Shown one piece after another: positions 3,347 through 64,000 of a DNA stretch of 64,000 nucleotides. The number at the start of each line of letters is the position of its first letter. Position 1 is the stretch's first letter. Below the pieces are notes generated by a model that was not told the DNA's origin, searched no databases, and was given only the letters and a program-made list of their open reading frames with translations. Position numbers and translations under genes: made by a program. This DNA is from Tubulanus polymorphus (Eukaryota > Animalia > Nemertea): the NCBI RefSeq assembly GCF_964204645.1, contig NC_134028.1, positions 13,895,653 through 13,959,652 on the forward strand, given 5' to 3'.

Positions 3347-3593
3347 TTTAATACTAAATTTTTTATTAAAATTGATTTTAGAAGTTCAATGATTTAAATA
3401 TGTATTATTTCAATCACACTTTACTAACACTTTTAATGTTTAAAAATCTAACTCATACAAATATAAATATTGAAATAATGTTTAAAATGTATCTATATAT
3501 CTATTATATAAGAGCTCACACTTTTATATTGAATAATCTGTCAATTTAAATGTTATTCATTTATATTTTATTCATGTATATGAATATTTTAAG

Positions 3594-27174: not shown

Positions 27175-27939
27175 TAATAATAATAATAATAATATTTATT
27201 TACAGTCCGTTACATAAAATATCTCAACAGACTTTACAAATTGACAAAAACATAAGACAGTTGACAGATATATAAAATATTACCCAATAAAATAGATATT
27301 TAATTTCAAACGGTTGCTTCAAGTAAAATCATTTGTAGTGCTGATTAAATAGGTGCGTTTTCAATTGCGAGGTAAAACTATTAAGGGAAGATAAATCGCG
27401 CATCGACTGTGGCAAAGCATTCCAAAGGAAAGCTCGAGAGCCATAAAATTCTTGGCGGTATCTCGGTTCAAATAATTTAGTTGCCACGGTCGAGCGCGTG
27501 TGTCTGGAAGGTGTAAGAGTGGTTAAAACAGACGAAAGATAGGCTGGTGCTTGGTCATGCAAAATTTTAAAAGTTAACAGGAGAATTTTGTATTCAATGC
27601 GCGATTGAACAGGGAGCCAATGTAGTTCATACAGTATAGGAGTGATATGCTCGTGCTTCTTAGTGTGACTAGGCGTGCGGCAGAATTTTGAAGCATTTGT
27701 AGGCGAGAAATATAACAATTCGGAAGACCGTAGAGAAGACTATTACAGTAATCTAATTTGGAAGTTATAAAAGCGTGAATCAATCTTTCGGTGCTAGTGC
27801 GATCTAAAAACTTGCGTATTTTACCAATGCGATGCAGGGAGTAAGAAATCGATCTACAGACGTAAGATATATGACAAGACATGGTAAAATTATGATCGAA
27901 ATAAAAGCCAAGATCTCTGACTGACTGACAAGTAGCTAT
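27171..27939 (-). mobile_element. L2/CR1-group LINE, 3' part with (TTA)n tail
   Basis: VRDLGFYFD...SKLDYCNSLLYG...HITPILYELHWLPV; AATAAA followed by (TTA)n on the minus strand. Confidence 0.92.
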
Positions 27940-29022: not shown

Positions 29023-29061
29023 TATTGGAATATGTTCCGCGGTCCCTTTCTCTATTGTCTT
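28994..29061. repeat. Perfect 33-bp-stem hairpin at the inner edge of the inverted LTR
   Basis: AAGACAATAGAGAAAGGGACCGCGGAACATATT-GG-AATATGTTCCGCGGTCCCTTTCTCTATTGTCTT. Confidence 0.97.
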
Positions 29062-29406
29062 CGTCGCTATGATGACCCTACTCGTTTCATTGTTCGTTTA
29101 ATTAATTGTATAAATTAATGCGTAAACGTATATCCCACATAAATATCACCTAAAGTAACCACTTAAATACGCATAAAATATCATATATGGTTATTATATA
29201 TCGTATAACTATCCGTAAACGAAAATGACATGATCAGCCTGATCAAATAACAATTGCAAAATAATCTTATCACGACTATACTTACAAAGCCGTCTTATAA
29301 ATTCAGGAAAAAGTGCCCATAGGACACTCCTGCCAGAATATTAACATCGCGAGGAGAGTATAACACTAATTCCTCCAAATGCGATGCTACTAAGTGATTC
29401 AAAATC

Positions 29407-32046: not shown

Positions 32047-32106
32047 TCTGAAAAGATAACAATGAGCCACGTCAATATGGCAAACTTTGGAACAGTCGTC
32101 GTCCTT

Positions 32107-35100: not shown

Positions 35101-37143
35101 AGGGGGTGCATCTCCAGTGTCTATAACGTGTTTGACAAAGTCCGTCTTACCCAATTCCTCTGGGGACCTAGCAAAAACATCTTTGTACGAGTGCAGTAAC
35201 TTAAGAAGTTTTGTTCGTTGTGACGGCATCAGGTCAGACTTGACTAGATCGATCTCAGGTAGTCCTATGTCAGCTGATGTCTGCGGCTCGTTAACCTGAG
35301 TAAAATTGACCTCTGGTGGCCTTGGAAGCTGGCCAAAATCCCCCTTAGTTGACAGCGTCCATCCCTCTGTCCATAAATGACCCAAGCACGTACCCTCATA
35401 CAAGGTCACATGTCGGGATGTAGGGTTCATGACCCTAATGGGAATCCCTGTTGAAGTGACATCAACTACTGACCTAGCGCCTAACAAATCCTGAGTGCGA
35501 AGATGGTTAGATGGCTCAAATACAGCAAACGGCGCTGGAGGTTTGTCCGACAAACAGTTCCCGTTCACAATTACTTCACACGAAGGTGGGACAATTGTCA
35601 TTTCGGTCACTTTAACTGTCGAGGGTTTTCCTAGATTGACTGTATTGCTACTAAAATGGATTGTGTCGGCACCTGGCAGCAGGAGAGCTTTCTTGCCGTA
35701 ATCAATAACAGCATGTTGCTGTTCTAGGAAGTCTGCTCCGAGAATAACATCGGAGCTCACGTCATCGACAACATACATAGAATGGGTGAGATCTAGATTA
35801 CCCAGCTGAAAGTTTATGTCTACTAATCCTCTCAAGTTAAACTTACTTCCATCTACCCCACGAGCGGAATGGAATAGTCCTTCTCGCGTTTCACCTGACT
35901 GAATCTGCGGATTTCTATGTAAACAACCACTATTTAAAACGGATATTTCCGCGCCGGTGTCAATAAGAATATTAAGTGGTATACCAGAATGATGACCAAC
36001 TACCCGATTAGCAACAGTAGCCATTATTGACGGAAAATAGTTCTGGGTAACCCCGTCCTGTTCGTCGATTGTGGAGGCAGAAACTCCACTAAAAACCTCT
36101 GTATTACGTGTCGACTCGTCCTTTTCGGCCTCTGAGTCTACGACAACCTCGTCTTGAACCAAGTCACTTCCCTCGTTACACCCATACAACCCATTATCCG
36201 AACTCTCATTCGGTCGAGAAAAATTAAAAGATTCTTCCTGCGAAAATGTGTTAGCTAATTCAGCCTCTTTTTGGCAGAAGGCAGCTTCCGCTGACCTTGG
36301 TGACTTCAATTCGGACTGATTTGTATCTTCGACCACACCCTGATTTAGTATTTTACTCTCTGAGTATTTTACCTTGTGATTAATTTTATTTGATGGCATA
36401 ATTTCGCATTGTACCGCTGATTCAACTGTCGCAGGGCAACTCTGTTGCGCGACTTCATGCCCCTTAATTATCGGAGAACCCTGTTCCCGCATACCGTCGC
36501 CAGTCGTCGAATTCCCCGGATCGACATTCAGACTGCAGCGCGGCCTACTATCATAACACACATTAAGGCATGATTTATTCGTTTGAATCTCATCTATAAC
36601 CACCGGATCACAAAATGTGACTTTTTTATGCCCTTCTCCATAGAATTTATCCCCAAATCGAACTTCATCTTCTTTTAAGTCATTTTCAAATTCAGATTCT
36701 TTGTCTTGACCGTTATAAAAATGATCTGCCCCCCACGAGGGTGTACGACACTCAGAGAACGTTCCAGAATAATCTTTAAGTTCAGTTTCATCAAAATAAT
36801 AAGAATCAGTCCAATCAGTTTTCAAGTCTTGATCATATTCTGATGGATCAAATAATTCGCAATCATCTAGACACGATTGCGACGACAAATACATGTCCTC
36901 ATTATAAAAATCACCATTTCTACAGGAAGAATCATCGTAATACCAGTGTTGATAGTAGTGACTATCATCCCACCAGAAATCAGATTCCCCTAGCGACGCA
37001 TTTGTTGCGGGCCGTATTGTCGATTCGTCACTGGGCGGCCATTCCTCATAGGATGTTCGTTGGCTACACTGGGGCGACCATTTGTGGTGGTTCGACCCCA
37101 CCCTTGCTGGTCTCCTACAGGATGAGGTCCCATGGCGTTTCCC
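32107..37143 (-). pseudogene. pol: Gypsy Pol (PR-RT-RNaseH-IN-chromodomain) with one in-frame stop at 34474-34476
   Basis: LIDTGA, YLDD, YTDAS/ITDH, GH..H/C..C, SMDVCGP/QSDRG/GQVE, WTGPY, and chromodomain YYVEKII..YLIKWVGY..TFEPAENL. ORFs 34474-37155 and 32107-34260 are in the same frame. Confidence 0.93.
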
Positions 37144-38165
37144 TGATTTGGCCAATTCAACCCTGGGCGTTGATTGCTAAATCTTCTATTGTTGTAATAA
37201 CGTCTAGAGTTTGCCGGGCTAGAATTATTAAGATTTCTGTCGTCTGGGCGCCTCTGATATCCCTGATCCACTTGCCAGGTAGGGCAGTTACGGGCGTAAT
37301 GTCCCGGGGCGTGGCAGCGGTAACAAATCACGCTCCCTCCGCTTGATCTCTGTAGAGATCGCCTTTCATCTGGAGATACTCCCCTCTCATGCTGGTCATG
37401 GCGTCTAGGGTTCGAATCCCTATTTTGAGTTGACATGAGTTGTTTAAACATGTCACGCAATTCAGCCATGACTTCTCGTACCTCCTGATTCGGGCTTGCC
37501 TCAAGCTGATTAACCGAGGGGGCAGTTTTCTTCTTTTTTTCTATGTGTTCTGCCATCCTACCGGCCTCCCAGGCATCTCTAAAAGTAGCGGGCCGCTGGG
37601 ACAGCAGATAAAAGGAAATTTCCGGTTTCGAGTTGTTAATTAACAACATTTTCTTCTGGTGATCAGAGAACTTTAAGCTAGAAGCCAACCGATCGATGTC
37701 CTCAGCAAATTGGTCAATCGGTTGCCCCTCCCCCTGTTTCATGGTTGTCAGGGCAGATTCCCTGACTATGGCCCAAGTTGTCGGGCTAAACTGTTTTATG
37801 AAAGCAGCAACGATATCATCCCAAGGGGTAATTTTTAAGTTGCCAGCCGCATCGGTCTCTTGATCGATGTGCAGATCGTTGAAAAGGACCAAAGCAGGTC
37901 CGGACAGAAACCAGAAAATCTGTTTCTTTTTGTCCTCAGTGGTCCAGCCTCTGAGGTCAGCGAGCCTATCATATCCCCTAAACCATTCATCCACATCTTG
38001 ATTGTCCCGGCCTGTGAATTTCGGAAGGAGGCTGTAATTTACAAACGCTGCTGCTGAGCCCATCTGCTCCTGAAGCCCGGTCAGCGCCCGCATGACTGTG
38101 TCATTGCTGACCGAACTATCAGCAGCCGTACCCGGATCCCCTTGGGCCCGACTTCGAGTCGTCAT
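36990..38165 (-). CDS. gag: Gypsy Gag with CCHC knuckle
   Basis: LPKFTG..W, MKQGEGQPI capsid motifs, CYRCHAPGHYARNC. Confidence 0.93.
   Translation of the reverse strand: MTTRSRAQGDPGTAADSSVSNDTVMRALTGLQEQMGSAAAFVNYSLLPKFTGRDNQDVDEWFRGYDRLADLRGWTTEDKKKQIFWFLSGPALVLFNDLHIDQETDAAGNLKITPWDDIVAAFIKQFSPTTWAIVRESALTTMKQGEGQPIDQFAEDIDRLASSLKFSDHQKKMLLINNSKPEISFYLLSQRPATFRDAWEAGRMAEHIEKKKKTAPSVNQLEASPNQEVREVMAELRDMFKQLMSTQNRDSNPRRHDQHERGVSPDERRSLQRSSGGSVICYRCHAPGHYARNCPTWQVDQGYQRRPDDRNLNNSSPANSRRYYNNRRFSNQRPGLNWPNQGNAMGPHPVGDQQGWGRTTTNGRPSVANEHPMRNGRPVTNRQYGPQQMRR
37091..37143 (-). promoter_or_regulatory. Putative -1 ribosomal frameshift signal (G GGA AAC plus downstream stem-loop)
   Basis: Pol is in the -1 frame relative to gag. 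Heptamer at 37137-37143; GACCTCATCC pairs with GGGTGGGGTC starting about 7 nt downstream. Confidence 0.75.
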
Positions 38166-38317
38166 TGTAAAAAAAATTCATTCAAAATTTCTATTGTTAA
38201 AATCATTATTACTATTACCGATATTCTAACTGATATTACTATTATTATTATTCTTATTATTATCTTATTATTATTATTATCCCTAAAATTCGTAGGAATA
38301 ATGCCAATGTATGGAAT

Positions 38318-38584
38318 TTATTGAAAGATCATGGCATAAAACCTAGAGCTTTCCGCCCATGAGGGGTCTTTGTGCTCTTTTCCCAGCACTTCCGCGGTTT
38401 CTACGAGGCAATTTCGAAGGTGCCTTAACTTTGGCCCATTAGCATTTACAATAAGCTCAAATGTTTCCTCGTCACCGGATGCGTTCGCATCCTGCTCCGC
38501 CCAATAGAGACCGTATAGGCCATCCGTGAATACTTCTAACAGAAAATCATAGGTTTCTTGGGCCTCTATGATCTCTTCATCCAT
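38318..38584 (-). CDS. Small acidic leader ORF (88 aa) between PBS and gag, function unknown
   Basis: ATG-initiated, GC-richer island within an AT-rich leader. Confidence 0.55.
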   Translation of the reverse strand: MDEEIIEAQETYDFLLEVFTDGLYGLYWAEQDANASGDEETFELIVNANGPKLRHLRNCLVETAEVLGKEHKDPSWAESSRFYAMIFQ

Positions 38585-38691
38585 AATTCAGAAATTATAT
38601 ATAATACTATCGTATTAGAAATTCAGAAATTTTTTTGTGTTATTTAAATTGGAATTTAAAGTAGCTAATTTATTATATATTATTCCGGAGT

Positions 38692-38709
38692 TCCCGGGTT
38701 TCGGCACCA
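38692..38709 (-). promoter_or_regulatory. Primer binding site complementary to the tRNA-Phe 3' end
   Basis: TGGTGCCGAAACCCGGGA, 3 nt after the LTR's terminal CA. Confidence 0.9.
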
Positions 38710-38712
38710 ATA

Positions 38713-39795
38713 TGTTCCGCGGTCCCTTTCTCTATTGTCTTTTTCCTCTATTACAAACTCCGGTCCCTGGCGAGAAAGTCGACCACGAACACAGAAACCC
38801 GAAAACCAAGGAATAAAAGGAACTCCGGATTTAAATATGATAATACTCAACTTTAATTCTACAATTTTAACTGAACTATAGTCTCAACAATTTATAAAAT
38901 TCCCTACCTTTTAATTTAGAATTTTGTTACAAATCCCGCACACAAGAAGATGCAATTCAACCGGATAGCCGAAAGTTATCTGTTCTATAGTCTTCTAATG
39001 CTTCCCCTGAAAATGCTTTCCAAAAGAGTCCGCTCTCTCTCGAGGTGCGGCCCCTTTTATACGGCTGCGTCCACACCCAAGAAAAATCCAGAACCCTGCT
39101 TGCGGCCAGCCGTAAAAGGGAACGAGCAACCAACGCAGCACCACGACGCAGAGCTGGGGTCCTGATTCCTAGACCTTTCATTCGCTGCTAACTTTAACCC
39201 GACCCTCGACGTCATGATACCTGCCGGTCTGCTCTCCTTCTCAACCGCACCGAAGAGATTACATATATACTATTTTTCCAACCCTCGAACTCATTTATTT
39301 TAACTTATCCAATGATTACAATTCCCACAATGAATGGTATTTAATTTTGTCTAAATAGTAATATACAATGTAAGCCGAAATATCATCTTTCTTATTTATA
39401 TTCTTTATCATTATTAGTACATTCAAATTTAAACACACAAACTCTTATTAATTAAAATAATAAAACTCTTTAATATTACTTTTTAATATTACTCTTTAAT
39501 ATTACTCCTTATTATCGAATTATCAGACTAAGGGTCAGCGAGTGTTTCATAAGTTGATTTCATAATTGCTCATTTCCACGAATTCTTCTCATGACTACAG
39601 CGCCGTGATTACCTTCAAAGTGATTTAGAATGCTCGTCTGATACAAGTATAAATGTTTCAGACAAACAACCATTAAGGCGGATAATGTATTATCGTACAC
39701 AAGGAACAATGCGTGTGTTCTCCCAGGACCATGCCAAGAAACCTACGTATATTAATCGTTTGATCTTTTTGAAAGTACAATTCAGCTGCGGATCA
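38713..39795 (-). repeat. 5' LTR of the Gypsy element (1083 bp)
   Basis: TGATCC...GGAACA on the minus strand, followed by the PBS; TATA at 39055-39061. Confidence 0.95.
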
Positions 39796-41665
39796 CTATA
39801 CTGTCATCTCCTATTCTAATACTTGATAGCTTGTCTCCCTTACGAAATTTTGACGTAAAATGTATAACCTCTGTCTTACTATCATTAAAAACAAGTCTAT
39901 TGCACTTCAACCATTCCTTTATTTCGTCAACACACTTCTCAACTCTTGATTTAGAAGCTGCACAACTCTTGCAGACGAAATAAATCTGGGTATCATCGGC
40001 ATATAACATTTAGTCGAGTTTATGTTTAATAATAATTTCTTCGATTGGTGCAAGATATAAACTGAAAAGTGTAGGGCCTAGTACACTCCCCTGAGGTACA
40101 CCACACATGAGTTTAACATTTTGAGATGACGATCTGTCAATCACGACACGCTGATACCTATTTTCTAAATATGACCTAAACCATTCTAAAGGAACATCTT
40201 TCACTCCATACCGATTCTGTAATCTATTCAATAGAATACCGTGATCTATGGTGTCAAAAGCCGCAGTTAGATCTAATAAGACGAGCACTACTTCATCGTG
40301 ATTATCAAGAGCTAACAAAATATCATTGTGTACTTTTAAAACTGCCGTTTCGGTGCTATTGAACTTCCTATAGGCAGACTGAAATGTTGAGAAGAGGTTA
40401 TTATCGGATAAATACTGACTCAAATCATTCAATACATGCCGCTCTATAGCTTTACTGATAAAAGGTAGATTAGAGACAGGTCGATAGTTACATAAAACAT
40501 TTGAATTAAGACCTGGCTTTTTCAACATTGGCCTGACTGTTGCTATTTTGAAAGAGTCAGGAACTGTGCCCTCAGTGAGGGACAAGTTAAAAATATCGAC
40601 TAACTTTGGTAAAACTTCAGGTAAACATTGTTTTAGAAAAGTAGTGGGAATCGGATCAATTGAACATGACTTATTGGTCATTGAAGTGATAATGTCGTTG
40701 AGAGACTTTTCAGTAACCGTACTAAAACTATTGAAGGAATGACCAAGATCTATAAAAGGAAAACGAGGGAGTGGTACATCAATAAAAGAATTACATAGTT
40801 TGGCAATTTTCACAACAAAAAAAATCGATTAGCCAGTTCTTTGGGATTGCTGTGCTCTGGCAGCGCGGAAATTACAGACTTCTTATCACTTGTCCATTCA
40901 TCGACAAGGGTGAATAACTTTCTCTGATCGGTACAGTCTGCTATCCAACCGCGATGATAGGATCTTGAGGCTTCTTGCAACAAACTATGGTACTCAATCC
41001 GATTGGCATGATAAATCTGTTTATCGACCTCTAATTTGGATGAGATCCACTTCCGTTCGTGGCTACGTAAAACACGCCTAGCAGCCTGGAGATTGGGTCC
41101 ATACCATGGAGCGCGAGGCTTATCGGTGAAAGTTTTAGTCTTTTCTGGCGCTAGATAGTCCAAAACTGACTTCATCTTAGCATCATAGTCATTCGCCAAA
41201 GAATTAACAGTCCCGGTCTCGGTATTCTCAAAAGATATGTTGCGAACTGTTTCCAGTAACACGTTCTTATCCACCGCTCGGAGGTTCCTGGACACACGTT
41301 CGACCGTCAACGGAAACGGTTTAGATAAAAACGAATTAAATACAATAAGACTATGATCTGACGGCAATGACGTATCAACGATAAAATTTGATACACATTT
41401 ATCGGTTTCACGAGTGATCACTAAGTCTAGGGTGTGGCCCTTCTGATGGGTCGGTCCTTGTAAATGTTGTAAGAACCCAAAACTGCGTAATAGATCAAGA
41501 AACTGTTGGGCATCGCGTCGCACGGTATCGTCAACGTGAAAATTGAAATCACCAACTATTATCAAACAACCTGGCGATATCAAAAAAGTCTCAAGGAACG
41601 TTGAAAATTCAACAAGAAATGTCTTTGTGGTCTGAGCAGGTGGACGATAAACAACTACTAAATTA
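39796..41665 (-). mobile_element. L2/CR1-group LINE, 5'-truncated part (APE C-terminus and RT, frameshifted)
   Basis: VYRPP, GDFN, GHTLDLV, SDH; NYRPVS, AFDTIDH, GVPQGSVLGP, YADD. Confidence 0.93.
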
Positions 41666-47787: not shown

Positions 47788-47860
47788 GGCTTATTTTTTT
47801 TCGCCCCGAAAAAACTGGTGGAAACAATCAACCGACATCTACTTTATTACTGACAATATC

Positions 47861-47966
47861 AGTATTAGGGATAATAGGGGTTCAGGCCAAAGGTCGAAAA
47901 ATAAATTCTCGCACACTCGAATTTATTTTTCGACCTTTGACCTGAACCCCTAGTATCCCTGTTACT
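47861..47966. repeat. Left terminal hairpin (106 bp)
   Basis: AGTATTAGGGATAATAGGGGTTCAGG...TCGCACACTC...CCTGAACCCCTAGTATCCCTGTTACT. Confidence 0.92.
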
Positions 47967-48017
47967 CTCAAAATATTCATATCAAAAATCAATTTTAATA
48001 AAAAATTTGATATTAAA

Positions 48018-50049
48018 ATGGAAGCAAATAAGAAGTACTACTGTCCAACATGTAAAATCAATAAAGATAAATCTCAAAAAGCAAGACATAATAAAACTAA
48101 ATCTCACTTAGAAAATAGATTAAACTTAGAATATAAAGATGATATATTAGAAACTAAATTCGATGAATTAAAGAATGAAAAAGAAATATACAAATGTGAT
48201 ACATGTGATCAATCATTCAGTAACAAAAGATTTCATAAAGAACATTTAAAATCTAAAAGTCATATTAGAAATATTAATAATGATATTTTAGGTGAAGAAT
48301 ATTTTGATAATGATAATGATAATGATAAGAAACAGAAGACAATTAGAAGAATAAAAAATAAAATAAACAATAAAAGGCCATACATGGAAGATGTTAGAAA
48401 TTATATTAATTCATTAGATAATCAAAAAGATATTGAAATAACCGAAGCATTTAAAAGTGATATTGGACCAGCTGCTATCGAGTTTAAATTTTATAAAGGT
48501 AAAACATTAGAAGAAAATTAAAAACATTTAGAAAATAAGAAAAATATTATAAAAATAATTACAGACGTAGAATACCATAAAATTAGCATATCATTTAAAG
48601 TTAAATTTATAAAATCTGAAGATAAACCAATATATAATATAAATTCTCATTCACAACATATTATTTCAAAACAACATATAGATGATAAATTAGATAAATG
48701 TTATAATGAAATAAAAACTAAAATAGAAGAGAAATATTTTGAAGGATCTGGTATAATATTTGATGAAATAATATTTATGACTTTACATATTTATAACACA
48801 AAATATAATAAGTAAACTAAATCAAAACCAATAGATGAAAATAATTTATCATGTTATGAAGATGATAATATAAATGGATCAAGTTATATCAAATTACCAT
48901 TAAAAACTAATGCTGTTATAAATGTACAAATTGAAGATGATTAATGTTTTCTATGGTCAATAATTAGTTGCTTACATCCAGTTGAAGATTATATTCAACA
49001 TATTTATAGATTAACAAATAAGAAACAATTTGAAAATGATTATAAGATGGATAATTATCCAGTTAGAATTAAAGATACACCAAAAATAGAAAGAGATAAT
49101 AATCTAAAGATAAATGTATTCGATTTAATCAAATTACCAAATACAAAAGGCAATAAAATTGAACATTTTACATTAGAGCCTTTGTATTCAAAATATTATG
49201 ATTCAAATGGTGTTATAGATATAGTATAATGTGAAAATCATTATATGTGGATTAAACAAATAGATTTATTTTTTAGAACAGAAAATAATCACAATAAAAT
49301 ATATCTATGTAGAAAATGTATAACTAAATTCAGTAATGAAAGGGCATTATTAAATCATAAGCAATTATGCGATAATCATGATTATTGTAAAATGATTTTA
49401 CCAAATAAAAAGGATAAAATATTAGAATTTAAAAAATATGATTACAAAAATAATCTGTAATGATATGAGAACTTCTATGAAATTTAATAAACCAATTTAT
49501 GTTGGAGCAACAGTTTTAGAAATATTATTATTATTAATGTATCAATTCTATTATAACGTATTAAAACCTCATTTTGGAGAAAAGCATATAGAAATCTTAT
49601 ATTTTGATACTGACAGTTACATATTAAAGATAAAAACTAATAACATAACAGATGATTTAAAAACATTGAAACATCATTTTGATTTCAGTAATTATCCTAA
49701 AGATCATGAATTGTTTAACAATGATAATAAAAAGGTGCCAGGGAAGTTTAAGGACATGAAGAAATGATTGAATTCATAGGTATTAGATCTAAAATGTATT
49801 CACATAAAACTAAAACTCATAAATCAAAGAAATTGAAAGGAATTACCAAAAGTGTAGTCGAAAAAACATTCATTTTAAAGATTACATCAATTGTATATTC
49901 AATGAAAAAGTTAGAAAACATAAGATGAAATGTTTATGATCTCAAGATCACGAGATGTTCATTGAAGAGATAGAGAAGATAAGTTTGAATCCTTTCGATG
50001 ATAAAGGATATATTCTCGATGATTGTATACACACAGTTGTTAATGGTTG
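48018..50049 (+). pseudogene. ZnF-pPolB with a large internal deletion near 49455 and many stops
   Basis: Collinear with copy 1 up to KKYDYKN, then jumps to the C-terminal NKPIYVG..YFDTDS..KKVPGKFKD. Confidence 0.9.
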
Positions 50050-50536
50050 AAATTTAGAAGAAAACTTAAAATTTAAAAGAGAAGAGTCAAAAGAGAATGA
50101 GATTATGAAAAGGATTATTACATGTTAATCGGCTTTAATTCAATTTTAATAAAAATTTGTTATTAAAATGGAGAGAAAACAAGTACACAGTGAGAACAAC
50201 AAATCATTTCTAGATAGAATTAAGATACTACAAATGTAAAATCTGTAGATTATAAATTTAAGAAGTTAAATGAATTAACAATTCATAAGAAATATCTAAT
50301 TACAAATATTGATACAGCTACTAACAAATATGGAGATAGATTAATAATTCACTCAAAATATGAAGGATTAAAAGGAAAAAATATAAATTTAGAACATATT
50401 TACCAGATAGATTTCATAGATTATCTAGTGAAGATTTAGAAGAATTATGTTCTGGCGATTTCTATTTCATATATAAGGGTAAGAATGAAAAAGGGCACCA
50501 TGAAATAGATTTTGAATAAAAAAATATGTAAAATAA

Positions 50537-51300
50537 ATGGTAGAATTAAAAGAATATAGAATATTTGTTGATTCTAGAAAACTGATAAATTCTAAATAAC
50601 ATAATTTACCAGTACAATTAGATAGAGAATTTAAGAATTGCGTAGATTTGAAATTAGTAAATGTAAGTTTATGTAACTCATTTTACGATATATCGGATAA
50701 AACTATTGATCATAGACTGTTTATGATTCATGTTAGAAATATAAATAAATGGTTTCATCTATTTTTAAAACCAGGATTATATAATTTAGAAACATTAGCT
50801 CAAGAAATTAACAGAAGAGCCCGATTAAAACTTAGAAGTGAAGATAAATGTTCAATTAGATTTATAAAAAGTAATAGTTCTGATAAAATTAAAATAAAGT
50901 TAGATGATGAAACCAAACACGCATTTATGGTACACAAACCAATAGCTAAAATGTTAGGAATTAAACCATATACTGTTACAGGAAACTCAGACGGTAATTC
51001 AAATTTAATGCCTTTAACACACTTTTATATCTATTGCAATTTAATTGATCCTACAAAAACTTTCGAAGCAACTAAAGATAAAATTTGTAATTCTAGTATA
51101 TTAAATATTTTACCATAAAAAAATGTTAAACAATTTGGAACGCAAATAAGTTATAATTTAGCTGAATGTGATTTCAAACCTTGTATTCCAAAATTCAATA
51201 ATTTTACATTAGAAATTAGAAATCATAATGGATACTTAATTGATTTTAAAAAATTTTACTGTAATTTATGAATTAGTAATAATAATATGTGGAGAATAAG
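50537..51300 (+). pseudogene. Minor capsid (penton)-like protein
   Basis: PGLYN, FYIYCNLID..SSILNILP, ..FTLEIRNHNGYLIDF pattern typical of Polinton/PLV pentons. Confidence 0.6.
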
Positions 51301-51802
51301 TTTTTAACTATATAAATGAATATAACAGCAGGACCGAGTATATGTTTTGGATTTTATTTTAAACGTGAGAAAGAAATGAAACTTAACATTAATGATGTAA
51401 TAACATATATTAAAAATATTACATTTTTTAATGAAACATTTGATTTTGAAAAAATCTATAAATAAAGAAACTTTTAATGTAGAAAAGATTACTGATTTAA
51501 TTAGAGAGTCTTTAAGATTTTATGAATTAGATGAAGATTATAATATCATAAATGTTGAAATAATCATAAATAAGATAACTAAATATTTATATATAATCGA
51601 GCATTACTATCAGTTGGAACTTTTGGTTATACAATGGTATTAAAAAGTATTTATGATGGGAAGTGTAAATGTTGATAGATTTGATATAAATGACATTTTA
51701 AAATTAACATTAGCAGTTACTTTATCTAATTTAACTATTGATTATTTGGAAAAACAAAAGTATATTCCTCCTATATAAATGCGTAATTTTTTTACTAAAT
51801 AA

Positions 51803-52228
51803 ATGGCTTCTGCAATTATAACTATTATAGGATCGGCAATTGTTAACGCTTTAGCATTTACAGGTGGTGGGTATTTATTTAAGCATGTTGATAAAAATAG
51901 TTCATTAGCAGAAAAAAGAAGACATAACTTAGCATTAGAAAAATATAATAAAGCAGCAGAAGAATATAGAGAAAAAAGACAAAATTATATGGATTACATC
52001 AATAAAGAATTATATATTCAGAAATTTACACATAGAGATTTTCAATCAGTTGATGAAGCTATGACTTTATATTTATAAAATGCAGTAACAAATCGTGAAA
52101 AATCACAATTGTACAAACCTAAATGATCAGATTATTATACCCCAAGTAATGAACAGAAGAAATATGAAATAATTTGGATTTTAGGTGGAACAGTTATTGT
52201 ATTATTTGTTGCTTATAAATTTACTAAT
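51803..52228 (+). pseudogene. Small protein with N-terminal hydrophobic helix, coiled coil and C-terminal TM segment
   Basis: MASAIITIIGSAIVNALAFTGG..EKRRHNLALEKY; downstream EIIWILGGTVIVLFVAYKF. Confidence 0.6.
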
Positions 52229-52715
52229 TAGTAATTTCTTTTCTTAATAAATGGTTGATAAAATTGATAATGTTGATATTATTATTCCTCATGATATAAA
52301 TAAAACTAAATTAAAATTATATTCGGAAAAATAAATATTAGAATTTGAAAATGATTTAAAAATTAAAAAGAAAAAATATTTAAAAAGTATTTATAAAGTA
52401 AAATTATATATTATTTTATTATTAGTAGTTCTGTTACAATTAGTTCTGTAATAACATTTCTAGCATTATTCTCACCATTAACACCTTTATCTATCTCAAT
52501 TGGAGCTTTAGGTTTAAGTTCAAGTGTATTAACCGGGATAGGTTCAAAAATAAATATACAAAGTTATAAAGAAAAAATTAAATCTAATATATAAGAAATT
52601 AATAACCTACAAAATACATTAGATTATATAATAAGTTTAAATGGTAATATAACAGTTGAAGAACAAGATAAATTATTTAAAAAATTAATAAATTAATAAT
52701 TTTTTTATTATATAA

Positions 52716-54023
52716 ATGCTAGATAGTTTTCCAAAAGCTTTTCAATATAATGACTCGATTTAATATAATATTCCTGCAATAGATTTTAATAAAGATATTT
52801 CATATAGAAATGAAGTTTTGAATTCATCATATATTTTAGATATTAATGTTACTGAAACTAATAATTTTAATGCAAAGTTGGAAAATATATTCAATATTTA
52901 CGTAATTAATTTTAAAAATTTAAATGAGGCAAAACAATGATTATTAAAATCTAATATGAAGTATTGACAGAACCAATTTAATTTTGCAGTTTATTGTGCA
53001 ACAAGAGCGTGTGGTATAAGTTGGAATGATCATTTAAATAAACCAAGTTTACCATTAAAATTACATTTTTTAGATGTCATACATATTTTCAAATAAAATT
53101 AATATTAAATGAATTAGAGTGCCCTTTACCAGGTTAAAAATATTTTAATGAACTAAACGATAATATTAATTTTCTCAAAGTTTTATAAAATATGTAATGA
53201 ATTTAATCTTAATTCAAATAATGATTTTAGAGCAATAATTGGTACAATGGGTGGATTAGGAATATTATATACTAAAGCGTTTGGAAAAATAATGACAAAT
53301 ACAGACAGGAGAACACTAAATTGGAAAGAATTACCAAAATATCATAATAATATACAACAAAATAATAATGGATGGATTAATTTCATTTTAGAAAATAGTG
53401 AAGGATTTACTAAAGCTGGGATACAGAGAATAAATAAATCTATTAGAACTTATTTGATATGTATTCTAGGTGCACAAATTGAAAAAAGATCCACAATAGT
53501 TGGAAATGATAACACTTCATTTGACGCGCAGAAACAATTTAAAGTTTTATTTGAAGATTCAATTCATAATGATAAAAATAGATCGATTCCAGAAAACATT
53601 GTAAGATATCAAAATTAGTTAGATAAATCTCATGTAAGATTAAATTATTGTATAGGTTCTAATCTATTTATTATTTCAAATGATTTAGTATTAAAGATGG
53701 GAAATATAAGTGGTTATAATAATTTAATTAAGACTGCAACAATAAATAATTCATTTGGATTAAATGACATAAATAAAAAGATTATTACTGCTCCAAAACT
53801 AATGAAAGGTGAAAAAATTAAAAAACATATTCAATCAACAGAATATTAGATGGATAATGATTCTAACATAAAAGATTACAATACATCAGAAAATATTGAA
53901 ACTGATAATATTCAGCATGAAATAATTAAAAGTAATAATGATAATAAATCACATGAAAATACTAAATTAGCAATAACTTGTATAGGAATTGTAATTGGAG
54001 GGATATTATATTTTAAATTTTAA
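52716..54023 (+). pseudogene. Uncharacterised Polinton-associated protein with C-terminal TM anchor
   Basis: GFTKAGIQRINKSIRTY..FDAQKQF segment; ends HENTKLAITCIGIVIGGILYFKF. Confidence 0.6.
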
Positions 54024-54659
54024 TTTTTTATTATATAAATGGAAGAAGATATTCCAATGGATACTTTTGGTGACGCCCCTGGTATAAGTGATGAACCACA
54101 ACCTGATTTTAATGAAACTAATATTGATAATGATGATGGATCAGCATATAATACTAATTACTAACTACTAGGTGAGGATGATTCTAGTGGGCCTATATTA
54201 TATGATTATGATGAATTTAAAGATGATACTGAAACAAGTGAAAAACTAATAGATTATTTAAGAACCCACGATGAGATAATAATTAAAACTAGACCAGAAA
54301 GAAAAGATTCAATTAATAGATTAGAAAGAACAGAACACTCTGAATTGAAAAAGAATTATTATACATAAAACATAGTGTAACAAATACAGGCCTATTGAAG
54401 AATTATTACCAAAACATGTAACAGATAACATTGAACCAGAAGATATTTCAGAACAAATTAGAAAAGATGACATACATTTCATGAATAATTTTGAATTTAA
54501 AAATGATTCATTGTATTAAAATGTTGAATTAAATAACAAAACTGTATCAATTCAATTATCTGAAATGGGACAAGAAGATCTGTACCATCCAAGAATTCTT
54601 TTTTCTTGGCAAGAATCTTGGTTTCTTACTCGTACGTCTCGTACATAGATATATAAATA

Positions 54660-55451
54660 GTTATTTTATAAATTTATATTCATAAGGAAATTGTAGTCTC
54701 AGTAATAATTCTGAACCTTTATTACTTTTTAATTTATTCATATATTCATCATGTAATTCAGTAGGTATAATTTTATTTTCTTCCAATGATTGTTGCATAG
54801 ATTTCCTATCTTTATTGTAGAATAAAACTAGAAATCTAATGTTTTCTCTAAAATCTTTAACAATTCAATTATATTTTTGATTTAAAACCCAAGTTGTTAT
54901 CCCAAAATGTCTCCCAGAGAAAGCTAGATAACATAACACAACTCTAACTTTTGAATCATGGAAATTTGCACAATCATCTACATTGAATAATGTATTTGAT
55001 CCTTTATAGATACCATGCGCTATTTTTATACAATTATCTAAATCCTAATAGTCATCTTCAGGAATAAGACTTATTCCTGAAGATGACTATTAGGATATAG
55101 TCGAAACGTTGAAATAAACTACTATCTCGAAGTTTCATTTTCGGACTTTTTATTATCATTGTGGGATTCTCTCCTCATCGCGTCAACACGGATATAGTGT
55201 TCTACCAATCGTAATTATCTAAATTTTGTTTTACTGTTTTAGGATCTAATATAATAAACTTTTTTATCTTAACTATATCCCTATTATATGTTTTATTCAT
55301 TTCATAAGTAGGACAGAATAATATTATATTATCAAAATGATTTTTATAAAATAGTTTCTAACAAATCTAATATGAAATGCGTTTTACCATAATTTGTTAC
55401 CCCAGTAACTAACATATTATGCGGTTCAAATATAAATAAATCTTTATTCAT
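54660..55451 (-). pseudogene. A32/FtsK-like packaging ATPase, interrupted by a Penelope fragment
   Basis: Walker A LVTGVTNYGKT, ILFCPT, Walker B LFNVDDC, SGRH..TWVLNQ. Confidence 0.85.
55044..55212 (+). mobile_element. Penelope-like terminal fragment with a hammerhead core and a 5' inversion; ~12-bp TSD AATTATCTAAAT
   Basis: CTGAAGA-TGACTAT..ATAGTC-GAAAC at 55077-55107; palindrome 55042-55096; duplication at 55032-55043 and 55213-55224. Confidence 0.75.
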
Positions 55452-56505
55452 TGATTCTTTTACTTTTACTAGATAAAATCCATTCATTAAATTTAACATC
55501 ATACCCTTTATATTTCACCAAAGAATACTTTTTTCCTTTAAGAGTTTTTGTTTTCAATACTTTTTCTACTTGTATTCTATTTCATCTGGATTTGGTACAA
55601 GTGATAATTCTTGTTCATAGAAATAACCTAATATTTCTCCATCGTTTAAATCTTCTTATTTATAAACAAAAGGTTTAGTTAATATTATCTTTTTAATTTT
55701 GAATATTTCTTCTGTAAAATTTGGAGTATAACCTTTATAAAATGTTTTTCGATATTTAGATATTCTAACATGTTGCCCTATTTTAAATTTAGGTTCACCA
55801 AAACATGTGTAACAAACGCTCCATATAAATTATTCCAAACTATTTCTGAATTATCTTCTTTTCTAGCTTGTATAGGTTTCAAACCAATACTTGAATGTTT
55901 AGAATTATAATAACCTTTCACTAAATCATCTAATACATCGATATATTTATATGTTTCATTGGCAGTTAAATATTTCCACTTTCTAGTTTTCAATGTTTTA
56001 TTAAATCTTTCTATGATAGATGCTTTTTTTATCTGAATGCGTTGAAAAATACTCTACATCGTTATCAGATAATAATTTTTTAAAATTCATCAAATTGTAT
56101 CTTACCTGGAATAGCTTCTTTTAATATATTTATAAAAGCATTTGTTACTTCTATACCAGTTTTATTTTTGATTGGAATTGACCATGCGTATCTACTGAAT
56201 ATATCTATAACATTCAATATCCAGAAATATCCTTTGTTGTATTCTTCTAAGTTCTTCATGTCTATTAAATCTCCTTGCCATTGTTGATCAACATATGAAA
56301 CCGTAACTTTTCTTGTTAAATAATTTTTATCCATTTTCTTATGGATTTGATATGTTGGTTGATTTTGTAACCATAATCTTAGTTCACTATATTTTACATT
56401 TTCTTTATCAAATTTCATTTCATCCCATAATTCTGAAACACTAGAATATGATACTTCAATCTCTGGGTTATAATATAAATCTCTTAGATATTGTTCTTTT
56501 TTCAT
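55448..56505 (-). pseudogene. Retroviral-type (rve) integrase with C-terminal chromodomain
   Basis: WQGDLIDM, VIDIFSRYAW, ASIIERFNKTLK, FKIGQHVRI..KGYTPNF, EKVLK..LVKYKGY..EWI. Confidence 0.9.
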
Positions 56506-56511
56506 CTTATT

Positions 56512-56856
56512 TTAATCCATCAATAATAATCTTGGTTTATTTACAATGATTTTATCATTTGATTTATTTTCTGGTATAATAGGTTTATCATCAAAATAAT
56601 TATTATTAGATTTGAATCTAGATTTATATATTACACCAGAGAATATAATTACTGTGATAAACCCAAATGCTATATATAAGTAATTATTTCTTCCACTATT
56701 AAAAAGAATTAGATTTGAATTAATATCAGGTGATTCATTTATATCAGTGAATGTCTTTTTCTTAGCTCTTTTTAACTCTGAAGATCTTTTACCTAATTCC
56801 CTTGCCCATTTAATTTGTTTCTCAGATCTAGGCTTCTTCTTAATACCATCACTCAT
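56512..56856 (-). CDS. Uncharacterised basic protein with one TM segment (114 aa)
   Basis: Intact ORF in very AT-rich DNA; TAAATG start. Confidence 0.6.
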   Translation of the reverse strand: MSDGIKKKPRSEKQIKWARELGKRSSELKRAKKKTFTDINESPDINSNLILFNSGRNNYLYIAFGFITVIIFSGVIYKSRFKSNNNYFDDKPIIPENKSNDKIIVNKPRLLLMD

Positions 56857-56861
56857 TTATT

Positions 56862-57452
56862 TTAGTTAATTTTTGTTCTGATTCGTTTTCTGTTTCGCCG
56901 TGTGGGTGTCACACCATCTGTTTCGTTCTTACCTGATTTATATTCTTTAGGTTTGATATTCGAAAATGTTATGACACCAGTAGAGATTAATGTCATAACC
57001 GATCCTAATTGGAATGAAGCATATCCAACCCATTTTTGTAATTCAGTCATAACTAAGTAGTCATTTTTTAATTCAATATATAATTTATTTTCATCATTAA
57101 TTGACATTAACCGGTTACATAATTTTGAATAACATTTGACAATACCATCAGAAATATAATCATTTATTCTAGCTAATCTTGACTCTTCATTAATCTTAAG
57201 ATATTTTATTACTTTTTCTTTGTTCATATTATCTAATTTTTGAAAAGTTATAATTTTAGTTAGAAATTCTTTACACTTTCCGCTAGCAATTAGTAACTCA
57301 AGATGATGCTTACAGTATAAATAGCATTCGTAATCAATATTATTATCAACTTGAGCACAATCAATAAAAACTGTATCATTATTGCCAGTAATGCCCAAAT
57401 CCTCAATTGTCTTTTCAATATCAATACTATTCTTATTCAATTTCTTTGACAT
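56862..57452 (-). CDS. Uncharacterised Polinton-associated protein (196 aa)
   Basis: Intact ORF; TAAATG start. Confidence 0.65.
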   Translation of the reverse strand: MSKKLNKNSIDIEKTIEDLGITGNNDTVFIDCAQVDNNIDYECYLYCKHHLELLIASGKCKEFLTKIITFQKLDNMNKEKVIKYLKINEESRLARINDYISDGIVKCYSKLCNRLMSINDENKLYIELKNDYLVMTELQKWVGYASFQLGSVMTLISTGVITFSNIKPKEYKSGKNETDGVTPTRRNRKRIRTKIN

Positions 57453-57719
57453 TTATATTAGAGAAAAAAAAACAAAAAAAATATTATACTTATTCTTCAA
57501 ATGATACTAGTAACTCTTTAGTTAATACTAGCTTAGTTAAGTTAAAGAATTCTAGTATTAACTAGATTTGAATAGCTACGTGAAGATAAAGAATTTCTAT
57601 TCGAATATATTCAAAATATAAAGTATTCTCTTTTGAAAAGAAATATTAGATTTTGAAAAATATCTAATATCTAGTTGAAGTTATGTAATTTTTAATATAT
57701 TTTTATTTAAATTAGGATT

Positions 57720-58435
57720 TAATACCTCACTAATTTTGTCTATCTATGCGGAGCAATTAAATCGTCCAAATAAGTCATTTCGGATTCTCGGTATTGAATC
57801 ATATTCCATAATTGTATAAATCTTTTAGCTTTAATTATTTGATTATTATATAATTCATTATAAATTTTATCATGTTTAATTCTATTTTCTGTTTTCGATA
57901 AAGAATAATATTCTTCCAATTACATATTGTTTTTATTTCAGATTCATCTTCTATTGATGATAATGGGATAACATGATCTAACTCCCAATATTCTCCATGA
58001 TTCTCAAAGTTCATGTTATTATCGAACTGATATTCTATCCATGCTTTAAAGAATTCTATAGAACACCCTAAATAACCAATTGATCTATCAGATTTTATAA
58101 AATTTTTGGAAAACCCTGTTCAAACTAATTCTGTTAGTATGCTTTAATTTGAATAATGGATCTGAATTATATTTTACTTTTTGGTAATTATTGATATGTT
58201 CACGGTTATCTTTTATCCAATCTCTCATGTATTCTGGGTTATTTTCTCGATATTGTGCATTATTTTGTTTCCAACATGTTTTACAAATATTTCGTAAATC
58301 ATCTTTTTAAAACTTTTGTTTACAATATTCTGAAGATTGTTAATTTAATTCACACTTAGAACATATCTTATGATAAATATTTATAACACCAGCGTTATTT
58401 GTAATATTAATAATTTGTGGCTGTTTACTTTCCAT
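57720..58435 (-). pseudogene. HNH-type endonuclease of the kind common in large DNA viruses
   Basis: Manual translation: ICSKC.., YLGCSIEFFKAWIEYQFDNNMNFENHGEYWELDHVIP..CNWKN. Confidence 0.7.
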
Positions 58436-59707
58436 TTACAATATATGAATTTTTTTTATTTTATTTGAAATATATTTGATAATTTCCGTCTGTTCGTCTT
58501 CGACTTACGTCATCCTTTTTCATTCCTCGCTACTTTTGATAAGTCATTTCGGATCCTTGATATCAAAATCATACCAGTTGCAATATCCAAGGCGGGCCTA
58601 AATGACCGCTTTTGCTCAGTAGGCGCCAATCATAATTATATATTTATTCTGTAAAATTGAAACGACCGAACATAGAACATTCACACGTATGTGCACTGAT
58701 CAAAACCAGTCCTAAATGGCCCCTTTTGATCAGTGCGCGTGCGCCAATCAAAATTATATATTTATTCTGCAAATTGAAACAACCGAACATAGAACATTCA
58801 CCAAACAGATTTACACAATACATATACAAGTATGTTCGGTCGTTTCATCCAATGCATCATTTTATTTCTATATATAAAATTGATAATTACGAACATTTTT
58901 TCATTTTCCGGTTTATATTTAACTACATCAACAAATGTCAAACTTAATAATTGGAATTTTTGGAGTAGTCTAAATGTTTCTGAAATTCTTATATAGTTTC
59001 TTCGTCGATCTTTTGTGTTTCTTGTGCTTCTACACCCATTTCTATTGGTTCGACTTTCAGTGCTGTTGATTCCTCAGAAAGACTATCTTGAGTTGATCTA
59101 TCGCTTCTTGATGCGTATGACGTTTTATTAATCTAAAAGATATCGGCGGTAACTCTAGCTATCTAAAAGATATACTAAATATAAACATATTTAAAGGTTT
59201 CATATTTAGTAGCCTCAATAACAACAAAAGTACTTACATTTAACTCGCGAACTGTTATATCCGAAATGGGATAGATATTATAACTGTATATGTATGTCTG
59301 TTTGAGGGAGCGGTCTCTGGTTCAGTGTTAATACGTCATGTGAATGTACTAGCGCACACGAAACTTTCAGTTATTAAATTAACAAGCACCATCTGTCACC
59401 GTTTGCAGTAAACGATCGTTAATAATTCCGCGCGTAAGTAGGCAACAGGTGTTTTTGCAGTTTTACAGTGTTGTATGATATAATGTTAGATATCAACTGG
59501 TAGTATGAATATGGCTCAATCCTTATCTCACTACTTTGTCTATCTAAATGTGTTCTAGTTTTATTGTGTCTTGGTTTTTGAGATTTATCTATATTCATTT
59601 TACATGTCGGACAGTAGTACTTCTTATCTGCTTCCATTTTAATATTAAATTTTTTATTAAAATTGATTTTAGAAGTTATTCATATTCATATATATGAATA
59701 TTTTAAG

Positions 59708-59829
59708 AGTAATAGGGATAATAGGGGTTCAGGTCAAAGGTAGAAAGGTCGAAAAATAAATTCGAATGTGCGAGAATTTATTTTTCGACCTTTCGACCTT
59801 TGGCCTGAACCCCTATTATCCCTATTACT
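59708..59829. repeat. Right terminal hairpin (122 bp)
   Basis: AGTAATAGGGATAATAGGGGTTCAGG...GAATGTGCGA...CCTGAACCCCTATTATCCCTATTACT. Confidence 0.93.
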
Positions 59830-60301
59830 AATATCAATTAGCATCCCATAAACATTCAATACAAATATCTAAAATGACAATACAATATAGTGTGTTCATT
59901 ACATACACTTATACAGATATTTCATCACAAGAAGCAAAGAAAATACAATAGATTATTTAACATCGGAAAATTGACGTATTCAGTAGATTACAATAGTTTA
60001 CAAAATATTTATTCAAGTCCAGACATTTGATCATAGTATCCTGCAACTAAATGCAACTAATGTCCGACACAGTCCTTTCAAATGCAAACAAACACGTCCA
60101 ACAAAACGAATGTTCCGCCACATCCAGCGACCAAATACATGACGAATATAGATTACCAGCGACAAGTTCATAAACACCACACAGCGAAAAATAAACGACG
60201 AATAGAACACCATATAAAACAGCGACATTACAAATACGCGATATAACCGCACTCGACAAATATATCCCGGAACAGTGTAGAGATTTCGACAGCAATCCTT
60301 A

Positions 60302-61704: not shown

Positions 61705-64000
61705 CTACGGCCGATAATCTGGCAATCGTGGATATTGGTGAGCTACATTATCAGATGTATCATGAACCTCATAACTATTCGGAGCCTCAACCTCCCGAAC
61801 CAACGGGATGGATCTGTGACCATCAGGATTTACCATCAGCGGGATCAACAGAACATGGTGCTTTGTGTATAATCTTAAGGAAGATGGAGATTTTATTAAT
61901 AAAGAAACCTGTCTATAGGGCGAATACTTCACGGCTATCTTATCTTGCAAATCCACACTTTTACTTTCATAATAGATTTTACAGGGAACCACTCACTGGA
62001 AAGTAATAAATAATCTAAAGAAATGCGACGCACAATCTTTCTTTCTAAGAGCCGGTGAATCCATAATAGATTCGTTCCCAGGACATGTAGCCACATCTAT
62101 CAGTGGAAGTAAAATGCACCGCTTAGAATCAGATATTTCTAGAATGACTTCTGATTTACAACTGTCCACTAAATGTTGTCTACCCCTTAAGAAAGATATT
62201 ATGGGCATAAAATCAGAATACAAAAAATGTAATGCACAGTACAATACGGCCACTTAAACAAACGTATCCAGTGATCTGTCGTATTCCACATCAGCCAATG
62301 CGTGACTAACGTTAGCGCTTGTTTAAAGGAAAGAAATAGTTCTAGTTTAATCAATTATTGTCGCACCAACCCTTGGGACTCCTTGATGAACTAATGCAAC
62401 CAAGGGAAAAAGTGCTCCTGGATTAAACCGCATCATAAAGAAAAGATAAACTGTCATAGCAATAGTGACTATACTAAGTATAGTTGGTATGGATAGTATC
62501 TCTATAGACGATGGCGAAAAAGACGACTCTAGTCTATCATTAGCAAGTTCCTGCTTTAAGGCTTCTGCCTTTGATGAAAATAATTTAACATTTTCCGTTG
62601 CTAATTTCTTCACGTCAGCAGAATACTTCGTATCTTTGGCTGCAACCGTGTCCCAGGACCCTTTATCAAATTTAAACGTCGGCATTTGAACCTTTGGTGC
62701 CTCAGCCAATTCATTACCCCGAATCGCTTCAATGATAGAGCAGAAACACGGAATACTCATGACACACAGTTTACACGCCGTTACTGACTTCACTTGTCTG
62801 TTAAAACAATGCATTGTCCATACCTAATCACTTGAAGAAAGAAGATAACGGCCATCTGAAAGTTCATAACTCCCCTCAAATAATAAAGCTTCCTCATATC
62901 GAATATCACGTAATTTCATAAACTCATCCGGCTGATCCCAAAATAAAGCCGAATCACAAATCAATTTATTTCTGGAATTGAGAGATTTAGCAGTCGAACA
63001 AATCTTTAAATCCCTCCCCTGACAGGATAACAAAAAATCACTATTGAATGTAGTATAGTACTCGCTATCCCGAGTTACCGCCAAATACTGATGTAGACCA
63101 ACGATTTTAGTAGTGTTCGCGGTCGTTGCATTTGATGGTAATGGCAACGTGTCGATATGGTAAACATCCATAAGGCCTGCTATACTATGAATAGGAATGG
63201 CTATCGTGATATATGATATTTCTCAGTTTGAGTGAAAGTAATATCTCTCATCTGATAATTAAAGCTCGGCTGATTATGAGTGACCTTGAAACTAGGATGA
63301 TGGTCACTCAAAATGTCTTGGACATCATCAATAACCTTGCTAATTTGATCCGGGCCGACTAATGCAATGGGTAAAAAGGCATCCAGTAATAATTGGGTGG
63401 CTTGTAGAAAGCTCTCAGGGTGTCCAACCACAACACTAAACCTATACTGATAATCTACTAGATTCTTGAGCAGAATTGCCATAGAAGAAACAGTCACGTT
63501 CAATCGAGCTAACTTTTCTGCCAAAAATTTTCTGTGAATTTAGATACCTCTCTGAAAGGCTTTTATAAAAATCGTCAAATTTCTTCATCAGATCATGAGT
63601 CTGATTGATTGCTTCCATAGCATTATCTATTCTTTTACTCGTAGTGTTCATGAACGAATTTAAAGTTTTTCCTGCTTGAACTATCTGATCAGCCACAGCG
63701 CTTACCCCAGATTCAACCTTCAAAACGTACTGACGAAGGGCTTCAACGTCATCAACAGTAGCCGTGCCGAACAGAGATTTCATGAAATTCCTTACGGAAC
63801 TAAGAGCCGCGCGTTTTTTTCTGCCAGATAGGGTGACAGGAATCAAAGACTTAATCGTATCAATATTGGTCGTTGAACGAGTTCTAGTTTCTTTAATTTG
63901 TCCGGCCGTTCAGTTTATCAATGACTAAGTTCAACATACCGCACCGCACCCATTATACGGGTGGTCGTGGTGATGTCGTGGACAGCTCAATTGTGATATA
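61705..64000 (-). pseudogene. env: Second F-type env gene, frameshifted (decayed env-bearing Gypsy running off the window's right edge)
   Basis: RKKR-AALS..SLFGTAT, CQGRDLKIC, PCFCSI, TM segments; collinear with the env at 29407-32046. Confidence 0.85.

Follow-up and report, generated by a model that had tools for sequence, protein, structure and literature searches.

The window analyzed here is a 64 kb stretch of the Tubulanus polymorphus genome, and it contains an integrated Polinton/Maverick element at 47861-59829. An identical hexamer flanks the element as a 6-bp target duplication, and end-to-end alignment recovers terminal inverted repeats of 252 nt on the left and 287 nt on the right (Table 1). 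Both termini are near-perfect palindromes (47861-47967, ~107 nt; 59709-59829, ~121 nt), so that the end sequence reappears inverted ~110 nt further in. The corresponding hairpins have a z score of -15.3 on the left (-42.5 kcal/mol) and -19.9 on the right. Remnants of pPolB, an rve integrase with a chromodomain, an A32 packaging ATPase, an HNH nuclease gene and several conserved Maverick genes lie in between. The pPolB of another Maverick, metagenome locus L014, matches by tblastn both the element (E 2e-19 at 49468-49755) and a second copy in the window (E 6e-113 at 1-3346). The Pfam domain rve is found in the window at E 1.5e-4, below the cut-off, and above it (41.7 bits) in the related metagenome locus L002, where Pox_A32 also scores 43 bits. 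Most window genes are broken by in-frame stops or frameshifts, and the major capsid gene is nearly all gone, as no tblastn match to the L002 capsid exists in the window. The window copy is thus a dead element. No Pfam match to the adenain protease was found among the 16 open reading frames (ORFs) of L002, a partial element, or in six frames of the deleted and decayed window copy.

The start codons of the element share an unusual context. A first-pass annotation had listed nine ATGs within TAAATG, and TAA indeed precedes all of them (50537, 51316, 51803, 52251, 52716 and 54039 on the plus strand; 56856, 57452 and 58435 on the minus strand). Intact orthologues fix eight of these as gene starts, and for 50537 the anchoring match begins at residue 7 of the orthologue. 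The list was selective, as four more homology-anchored starts are without the motif, giving nine of 13 in the window. The small gene C was excluded from all start counts because its start position is ambiguous. Enrichment over internal ATGs, which the annotation had put up as its own test, is pronounced: TAA precedes 20 of 248 sense-strand non-start ATGs, a background that includes the gene A start, compared to nine of 13 starts (Fisher p 4e-7). The AT-rich background is insufficient to produce this count, since shuffling the 30 nt upstream of each start gave a mean of 1.1 of 13 and a maximum of 6 in 5000 rounds. The extended pattern TTTT-N7-ATAAATG occurs five times in the 64 kb, always at these starts (mean 0.36, maximum 3 in 100 shuffles).

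Relatives show that the motif is a trait of a clade. Alignment of the PW-like protein recovered 26 metagenome loci; PW-like and PM-like are what we take to be the names of these conserved Maverick genes. In a tree of 18 of 27 elements and five database proteins, the window element clusters with L001-L004 (support 100/99). TAAATG is found at 15/15 starts in L002, 3/3 in L001, 5/6 each in L003 and L004, and thus at 37 of 43 starts clade-wide including the window. The two exceptional starts of L003 and L004 have a shifted ATG but retain TAAAT 2-3 bases before it, which is the behaviour expected of a promoter element. Comparison with other Mavericks, likewise suggested by the first-pass annotation, found the motif at only three of 39 starts (p 1e-13), and at two of 20 where the upstream DNA of these outgroups is AT-rich. 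The 39 starts were hand-picked from 14 of 22 outgroup loci, with eight omitted as fragments with unclear starts or near-duplicates, and 29 of them have A at -3. L005, a Maverick outside the clade, carries TAAATG only at its PW-like gene (position 1584; one of three starts).

Orthologous starts are not independent, and L002 alone with its 15 different genes therefore provides the cleanest count; shuffles of its upstream regions average 1.3 and never exceed 6. The partial element L002 spans 11.5 kb, and apart from one stop in the integrase its genes are intact. Its capsid is predicted to fold as a double jelly roll (pLDDT 85; Foldseek E 5e-16 to the SGIV and PBCV-1 capsids), and is 35% identical to that of L014 and by fold 8-12% to those of mavirus and Sputnik. 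The capsid is thus of Maverick type and no protease was found in the partial L002 or the window copy, which places the clade outside the virophage taxon Lavidaviridae. The motif also precedes unrelated cargo genes, i.e. a deoxynucleoside kinase (dNK) in L002 and the HNH gene in the window. In L002, polymerase-side and capsid-side genes both carry it, as expected for a satellite expressed late (PMC6428243). The dNK gene of L002 (10340-10981, minus strand) has three relatives with 60-67% identity, beyond which identity falls to 37% or less.

A second box lies upstream of TAAAT. Among clade motifs, T frequency tops at the 10th base (0.92; neighbours 0.86 and 0.81), with T present there in 34 of 37 motifs, at 14 of the 15 genes of L002 and at seven of nine window starts. 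The window starts lacking it belong to gene D (52251) and to the probable minor capsid gene (50537), where the upstream sequence is A-rich. At 52 non-start TAAATG sites the frequency is 0.31. Positions 9-11 together hold 96 T among 111 bases, compared to 54 expected and at most 71 from shuffles. Orthologous genes retain both boxes but not the spacer between them: upstream identity is 0.90-1.00 over positions -1 to -4, falls to 0.35-0.60 over -5 to -11, and returns to 0.78-0.88 over -12 to -16. In late promoters of vaccinia, TAAAT(G) likewise lies over the start codon, and the 10th base upstream is a conserved T with weaker Ts around it (PMC11980589). The published consensus, T-N9-TAAATG (PMC11423596, Table 1), is matched by 34 of 43 clade starts. 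The resemblance is hence closer than the first-pass annotation had claimed from TAAATG, having missed the T-run centred on the 10th base. TAAATG is also used by entomopoxviruses (PMC3061580) and salmon gill poxvirus (PMC4542343). Differences from vaccinia exist as well, with A preceding TAAAT in 36 of 37 clade motifs and a frequency of A of 0.86 at position 15.

A second, A-rich class of starts is common to pPolB, gene A and the probable minor capsid gene (47985-48020, 50135-50170 and 50510-50540; L002 535-567). These starts miss both the vaccinia late consensus and the intermediate spacing; the class is intermediate-like with a spacing shorter than in vaccinia. The 35 nt upstream of gene A and pPolB are nearly identical. 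A poxvirus early or pGKL-type promoter was rejected by eye for this class, as TG stands ~10 nt from the ATG, which is too near.

Table 1. Features of the Maverick element in the window, with start contexts and supporting evidence.
Feature	Position	Strand	Evidence
Left target-site duplication, 6 bp	47855..47860	.	Hexamer recurs at 59830-59835
Left terminal inverted repeat, takes in pPolB start	47861..48112	+	Alignment to right end; hairpin
pPolB, broken, internally deleted, start TAAAATG	48018..50050 (end approximate)	+	L014 pPolB (Pfam DNA_pol_B_2) tblastn 48711-49799
Gene A, function unassigned, broken, start TAAAATG	50168..50519	+	tblastn to L002:125-469
TAAATG and probable minor capsid gene, broken	50534..51290	+	40% to L002:565-1329; weak DUF5901
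TAAATG and gene B, function unassigned, broken	51313..51550 (end approximate)	+	Residues 1-24 match L002:1333
Gene C remnant, small conserved Maverick gene	51589..51778	+	68-91% to L002:1733-1960
TAAATG and conserved Maverick gene, PM-like, broken	51800..52231	+	75% to L002:2014-2433
TAAATG and gene D, predicted membrane protein, broken	52248..52700	+	73-84% to L002:2541-2975
TAAATG and conserved Maverick gene, PW-like, broken, clade marker	52713..54023	+	62-67% to five intact relatives; tree
TAAATG and 5' part of gene G	54036..54520 (end approximate)	+	Residues 1-48 match L001:1388, E 9e-7
A32-type packaging ATPase, broken, start TCAATG	54661..55451	-	72-79% to L002 ATPase; Pox_A32
rve integrase with chromodomain, broken, start TAAGATG	55447..56505	-	Pfam rve and Chromo; L002 orthologue
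TAAATG and gene F, 114 aa, open	56512..56859	-	42% to L002:9951
TAAATG and gene E, 196 aa, open, longest T-tract	56862..57455	-	58% to L002:9410
TAAATG and HNH nuclease gene, broken	57740..58438	-	N-terminus common to orthologue P0177
Right terminal inverted repeat ending in ~121-nt palindrome	59543..59829	-	Alignment; z -19.9
Right target-site duplication	59830..59835	.	Matches left hexamer

The minor capsid label in Table 1 is probable and derives from synteny. The remainder of gene G is absent from the window copy, and the ATPase start sits inside the 3' end of the integrase gene. A single-sequence fold of gene A was poor (pLDDT 51) and gave no match at E 0.001. Elsewhere in the window, a second copy of the left end of the element (1-3770, minus strand; ~89% identical) has a longer readable pPolB and keeps its own terminal palindrome and TAAAATG start. 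At 5854-6616, the 5' part of a gene A homologue is present as two fragments in inverted orientation with 48-bp tandem repeats between them, and both start with TAAATG (ATG 5866, plus; 6604, minus). The flanks hold Pao, Gypsy and LINE remnants. Pao elements are an animal trait and make an animal host likely; Rfam gave no match. A Gypsy-type element nested in a Pao element (27937-39798) encodes a chromodomain integrase and an 879-aa F-like env ORF. Its bounding 1092-nt repeats, reported as 100% identical, are inverted and not direct. Another env-like gene, broken, lies at 62347-63909 (minus strand). No relative of the element turned up in protein scans of IMG/VR, and a prokaryote genome scan recovered L027, a distant GC-rich Maverick fragment in an archaeal metagenome-assembled genome and likely a contamination. 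Maverick capsid homologues with 55% to L002 (P0064, P0168-P0175) carry Bartonella sp. labels in NCBI and UniRef, and are likely mis-binned host DNA.

We consider it on balance probable that the two-part motif of the clade works as a promoter which a cytoplasmic DNA virus, probably a poxvirus-type one, reads with its RNA polymerase and late factors during co-infection. The pattern fits the rule that virophages have a late promoter in common with their helper (PMC6428243), from which we infer late transcription by the helper. The sequences support a helper well, while its poxvirus identity is only favoured. Under such a mechanism, nothing would be expressed from the integrated copy in the nucleus until a compatible helper infects the cell. 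The element DNA would then be transcribed in the viral factory late in infection, starting within the AAA of TAAAT and producing short 5' poly(A) leaders. The pPolB, capsid and ATPase of the element could subsequently build particles, and the rve integrase would return copies to the host chromosomes, a course known from mavirus and its giant virus helper CroV. More tentatively, an animal Maverick lineage might have switched from nuclear host transcription to poxvirus late transcription. The clade might then consist of endogenous, integrase-bearing poxvirus virophages, which would mark an undiscovered poxvirus-like virus of this host group and whose copies could possibly act as inducible antiviral defence.

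Several observations weigh against this interpretation. The case is built from sequences rather than from transcripts or a helper genome, and the clade is sampled by five elements, all related, of which four are partial contigs. TAAATG is missing at the window starts of pPolB, gene A, the ATPase and the integrase. The comparison with vaccinia was made against the published consensus text and not as a side-by-side logo. Of the 37 clade motifs, 36 resemble a poly(A) signal or TATA box. Codon shuffles for AATAAA and TTTTTNT do not separate the clade from other Mavericks. Iridovirus-like genomes have TAAATG at 10 of 40 starts in motif-blind regions compared to 4.2% of all ATGs. Finally, the nearest relatives of the HNH and dNK genes in IMG/VR are only 28-45% identical and none is named a poxvirus, though the poxvirus content of IMG/VR was unchecked. 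The cargo genes consequently failed as helper markers, with TAAATG at 70 of 1489 starts in the motif-blind viral loci recovered with them (n=160). In favour of the main interpretation, however, none of the 149 such loci that have five or more ORFs reaches 50%. The first-pass annotation had also pointed to the virus-type HNH gene and the hairpin ends as fitting a poxvirus-like helper. The gene offers no such pointer, and its family numbers 10,709 clusters. The hairpins exist but are no evidence for a poxvirus link, because they are open palindromes that lie within the terminal repeats, and the element itself is integrated and has a protein-primed polymerase. What endures of the proposed cytoplasmic pox-like helper is the motif enrichment, its absence from other Mavericks and the consensus match; the poxvirus identity is weakened by TAAATG being commonest also in iridovirus-like genomes.

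The helper could instead be an iridovirus-like member of the Pimascovirales, with cytoplasmic late transcription from a TAAATG-type start, which appears less probable though it is the most serious alternative. A motif scan of 58 IMG/VR loci found the top TAAATG fractions in contigs of nucleocytoplasmic large DNA viruses (NCLDV), namely L079, L069, L072 and L059. The bins G001 and G002 carry NCLDV capsids, that of G002 being nearest to grouper iridovirus (394 bits). The Rpb2 of L059 is remote from that of vaccinia (193 bits, compared to 641 for Pol II), and L059 also encodes IAP and matrixin genes. With the selecting matches removed, TAAATG precedes 30 of 93 starts in these NCLDV contigs, which possibly reflects an undescribed late initiator, and dNK is frequent in NCLDV clusters. 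Iridoviruses infect invertebrates, and their late mRNA is believed to be made in the cytoplasm (PMC8400408). TAAATG alone does not imply a poxvirus, because iridovirus-like genomes favour it too. Yet T at position 10 is found in only 16 of their 30 TAAATG starts compared to 34 of 37 in the clade (p 5e-4; 14 of 15 in L002 alone, p 0.008), and this rarer T favours a pox-type reader. Moreover, the four contigs were themselves selected by motif match, and the TAAATG genes in iridovirus-like genomes are only putatively late. In L059, L069, L072, L079, G001 and G002, which are iridovirus-like where tested, no start context is more frequent than TAAATG. Whole-bin pattern counts for G001-G003 (126 against 72 in the control, 69 against 50, 71 against 78) are weakly informative. 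Late genes of African swine fever virus (ASFV) have a TATA initiator at +1 (PMC7163114). TATA occurs in 18 of 37 clade motifs, 18 read AATAAATG, and the invariant part is TAAATG. An ASFV-type late initiator appears a poorer fit.

Transcription by host RNA polymerase II in the nucleus is unlikely, although Mavericks are generally assumed to be nuclear. The motif could in that case be the poly(A) signal of the gene before it, something close to a TATA box, or an initiator with a very short leader beside the next ATG. Read with the A of the ATG, 18 of the 37 motifs are AATAAA and 18 are TATAAA, and AT-rich starts occur in other Mavericks too. However, the divergent dNK and zinc finger (ZnF) genes of L002 both have the full motif and no co-directional upstream gene to terminate. 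Neither does a poly(A) signal require a fixed register with the ATG. From a TATA box at -5, transcripts would begin inside the coding region given the 25-30 bp rule (PMC5294985), and sister Mavericks retain their A at -3. AATAAA reaches 5.1-5.7 per kb on clade coding strands compared to 0.4 in host retroelement ORFs, and codon shuffles show it depleted in neither clade nor outgroups. In the same shuffles, the depletion of TTTTTNT seen in the clade (z -3.1, -2.6) recurs in AT-rich outgroups (z -2.0), and CpG is depleted in AT-rich outgroups only (z -5.4). A splice-acceptor reading was rejected, as AG lies within 12 nt upstream in only two of 37 motifs.

A poxvirus-derived polymerase or its initiation factors might also come from a helper plasmid in the cytoplasm or from an unseen part of the element, as in yeast pGKL. 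We regard this as improbable. The pGKL promoters combine a TAAAN initiator with 5' A leaders (PMC6211774), and L002 is incomplete, with a cluster mate on a 16.9-kb contig. Against it, no RNA polymerase, TBP or TFIIB family match was found among the 16 L002 ORFs. No such gene was found in the six X-read frames of the window element either, where sensitivity on broken genes is low. PDB searches of three ORFs without assigned function returned no polymerase subunit. The ~5 kb lacking in L002 would mostly hold pPolB. The pGKL box, ATNTGA, stands 20-40 nt upstream (PMC6211774), whereas the clade box is a T-run at -12 to -16.

Least of all can the motif be a by-product of AT-richness (GC is 20-23%) or of stop-start coupling of packed genes, since L002 shuffles reach at most 6 of 15 starts, viral loci with GC up to 0.27 have TAAATG at only 22 of 270, and the fixed T-run would be unaccounted for. 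The stop-start overlap that the first-pass annotation had named as a possible refutation is largely ruled out by the L002 junctions and was rejected as an origin. There, one of 12 is a true abutment and two have a 3-nt gap, but at the other nine the genes lie 16-325 nt apart or overlap by 80 nt.

We know of no poxvirus virophage shown to use poxvirus transcription. A literature search found no paper on poxvirus-type promoters in Polintons, with subscription papers and supplements outside its reach. Transcription from such promoters would bear on whether the Mavericks of animals live autonomously as viruses or are satellites that depend on large DNA viruses. The start-codon context could provide a cheap predictor of the helper for each Maverick lineage, and may allow inferring large DNA viruses for hosts not yet found to carry any. 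If infection does activate integrated copies, heritable antiviral defence of the mavirus type would extend to animals. The putative 30-base promoter makes the involvement of a helper directly testable.

The clade combines features of several known systems. The yeast plasmids pGKL1/2 have, to our knowledge, neither capsid nor integrase. They are linear and AT-rich with a TAAA-type initiator of poxviral affinity, but differ in encoding their own polymerase and in the ATNTGA box (PMC6211774). With Mavericks/Polintons (Polintoviricetes; 'adintoviruses', PMC8502044), the clade shares pPolB, the rve-chromo integrase, the A32 ATPase, terminal inverted repeats and the 6-bp duplication. The double-jelly-roll capsid predicted in L002 and accessory genes in common with L014-type Mavericks add to this likeness. 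Sister Mavericks are without clade-wide T-N9-TAAATG starts, and the clade stands apart by its ~20% GC, palindromic termini, dNK or HNH cargo and the lack of a detected maturation protease in the window copy or the partial L002. The words promoter and helper are absent from the available text of PMC8502044. The Polinton-like viruses AHEV_PLV1/2, CBEV_PLV1 and Ca_PLV1 associated with entomopoxviruses, compared here by description only, are also ~12 kb and proposed poxvirus hyperparasites (PMC11296320). Their link to poxviruses rests on occlusion-body co-purification and common end modules, and they encode a cysteine protease and a tyrosine recombinase or no integrase, unlike the rve-bearing clade (PMC11296320). 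Promoter, motif, transcription and TAAAT do not occur in the accessible part of that paper. The clade differs from Mavirus/Sputnik (Lavidaviridae) in its Maverick-type capsid, its likely animal host, the absence of a protease among the sequences searched and the motif itself, the CroV late motif being TCTA. Mavirus also has pPolB. Mavirus, Sputnik and the clade are alike as integrating, capsid-encoding elements with a late promoter motif in common with a cytoplasmic giant virus, which for the clade would be the putative helper, and mavirus likewise carries an rve integrase (PMC6428243).

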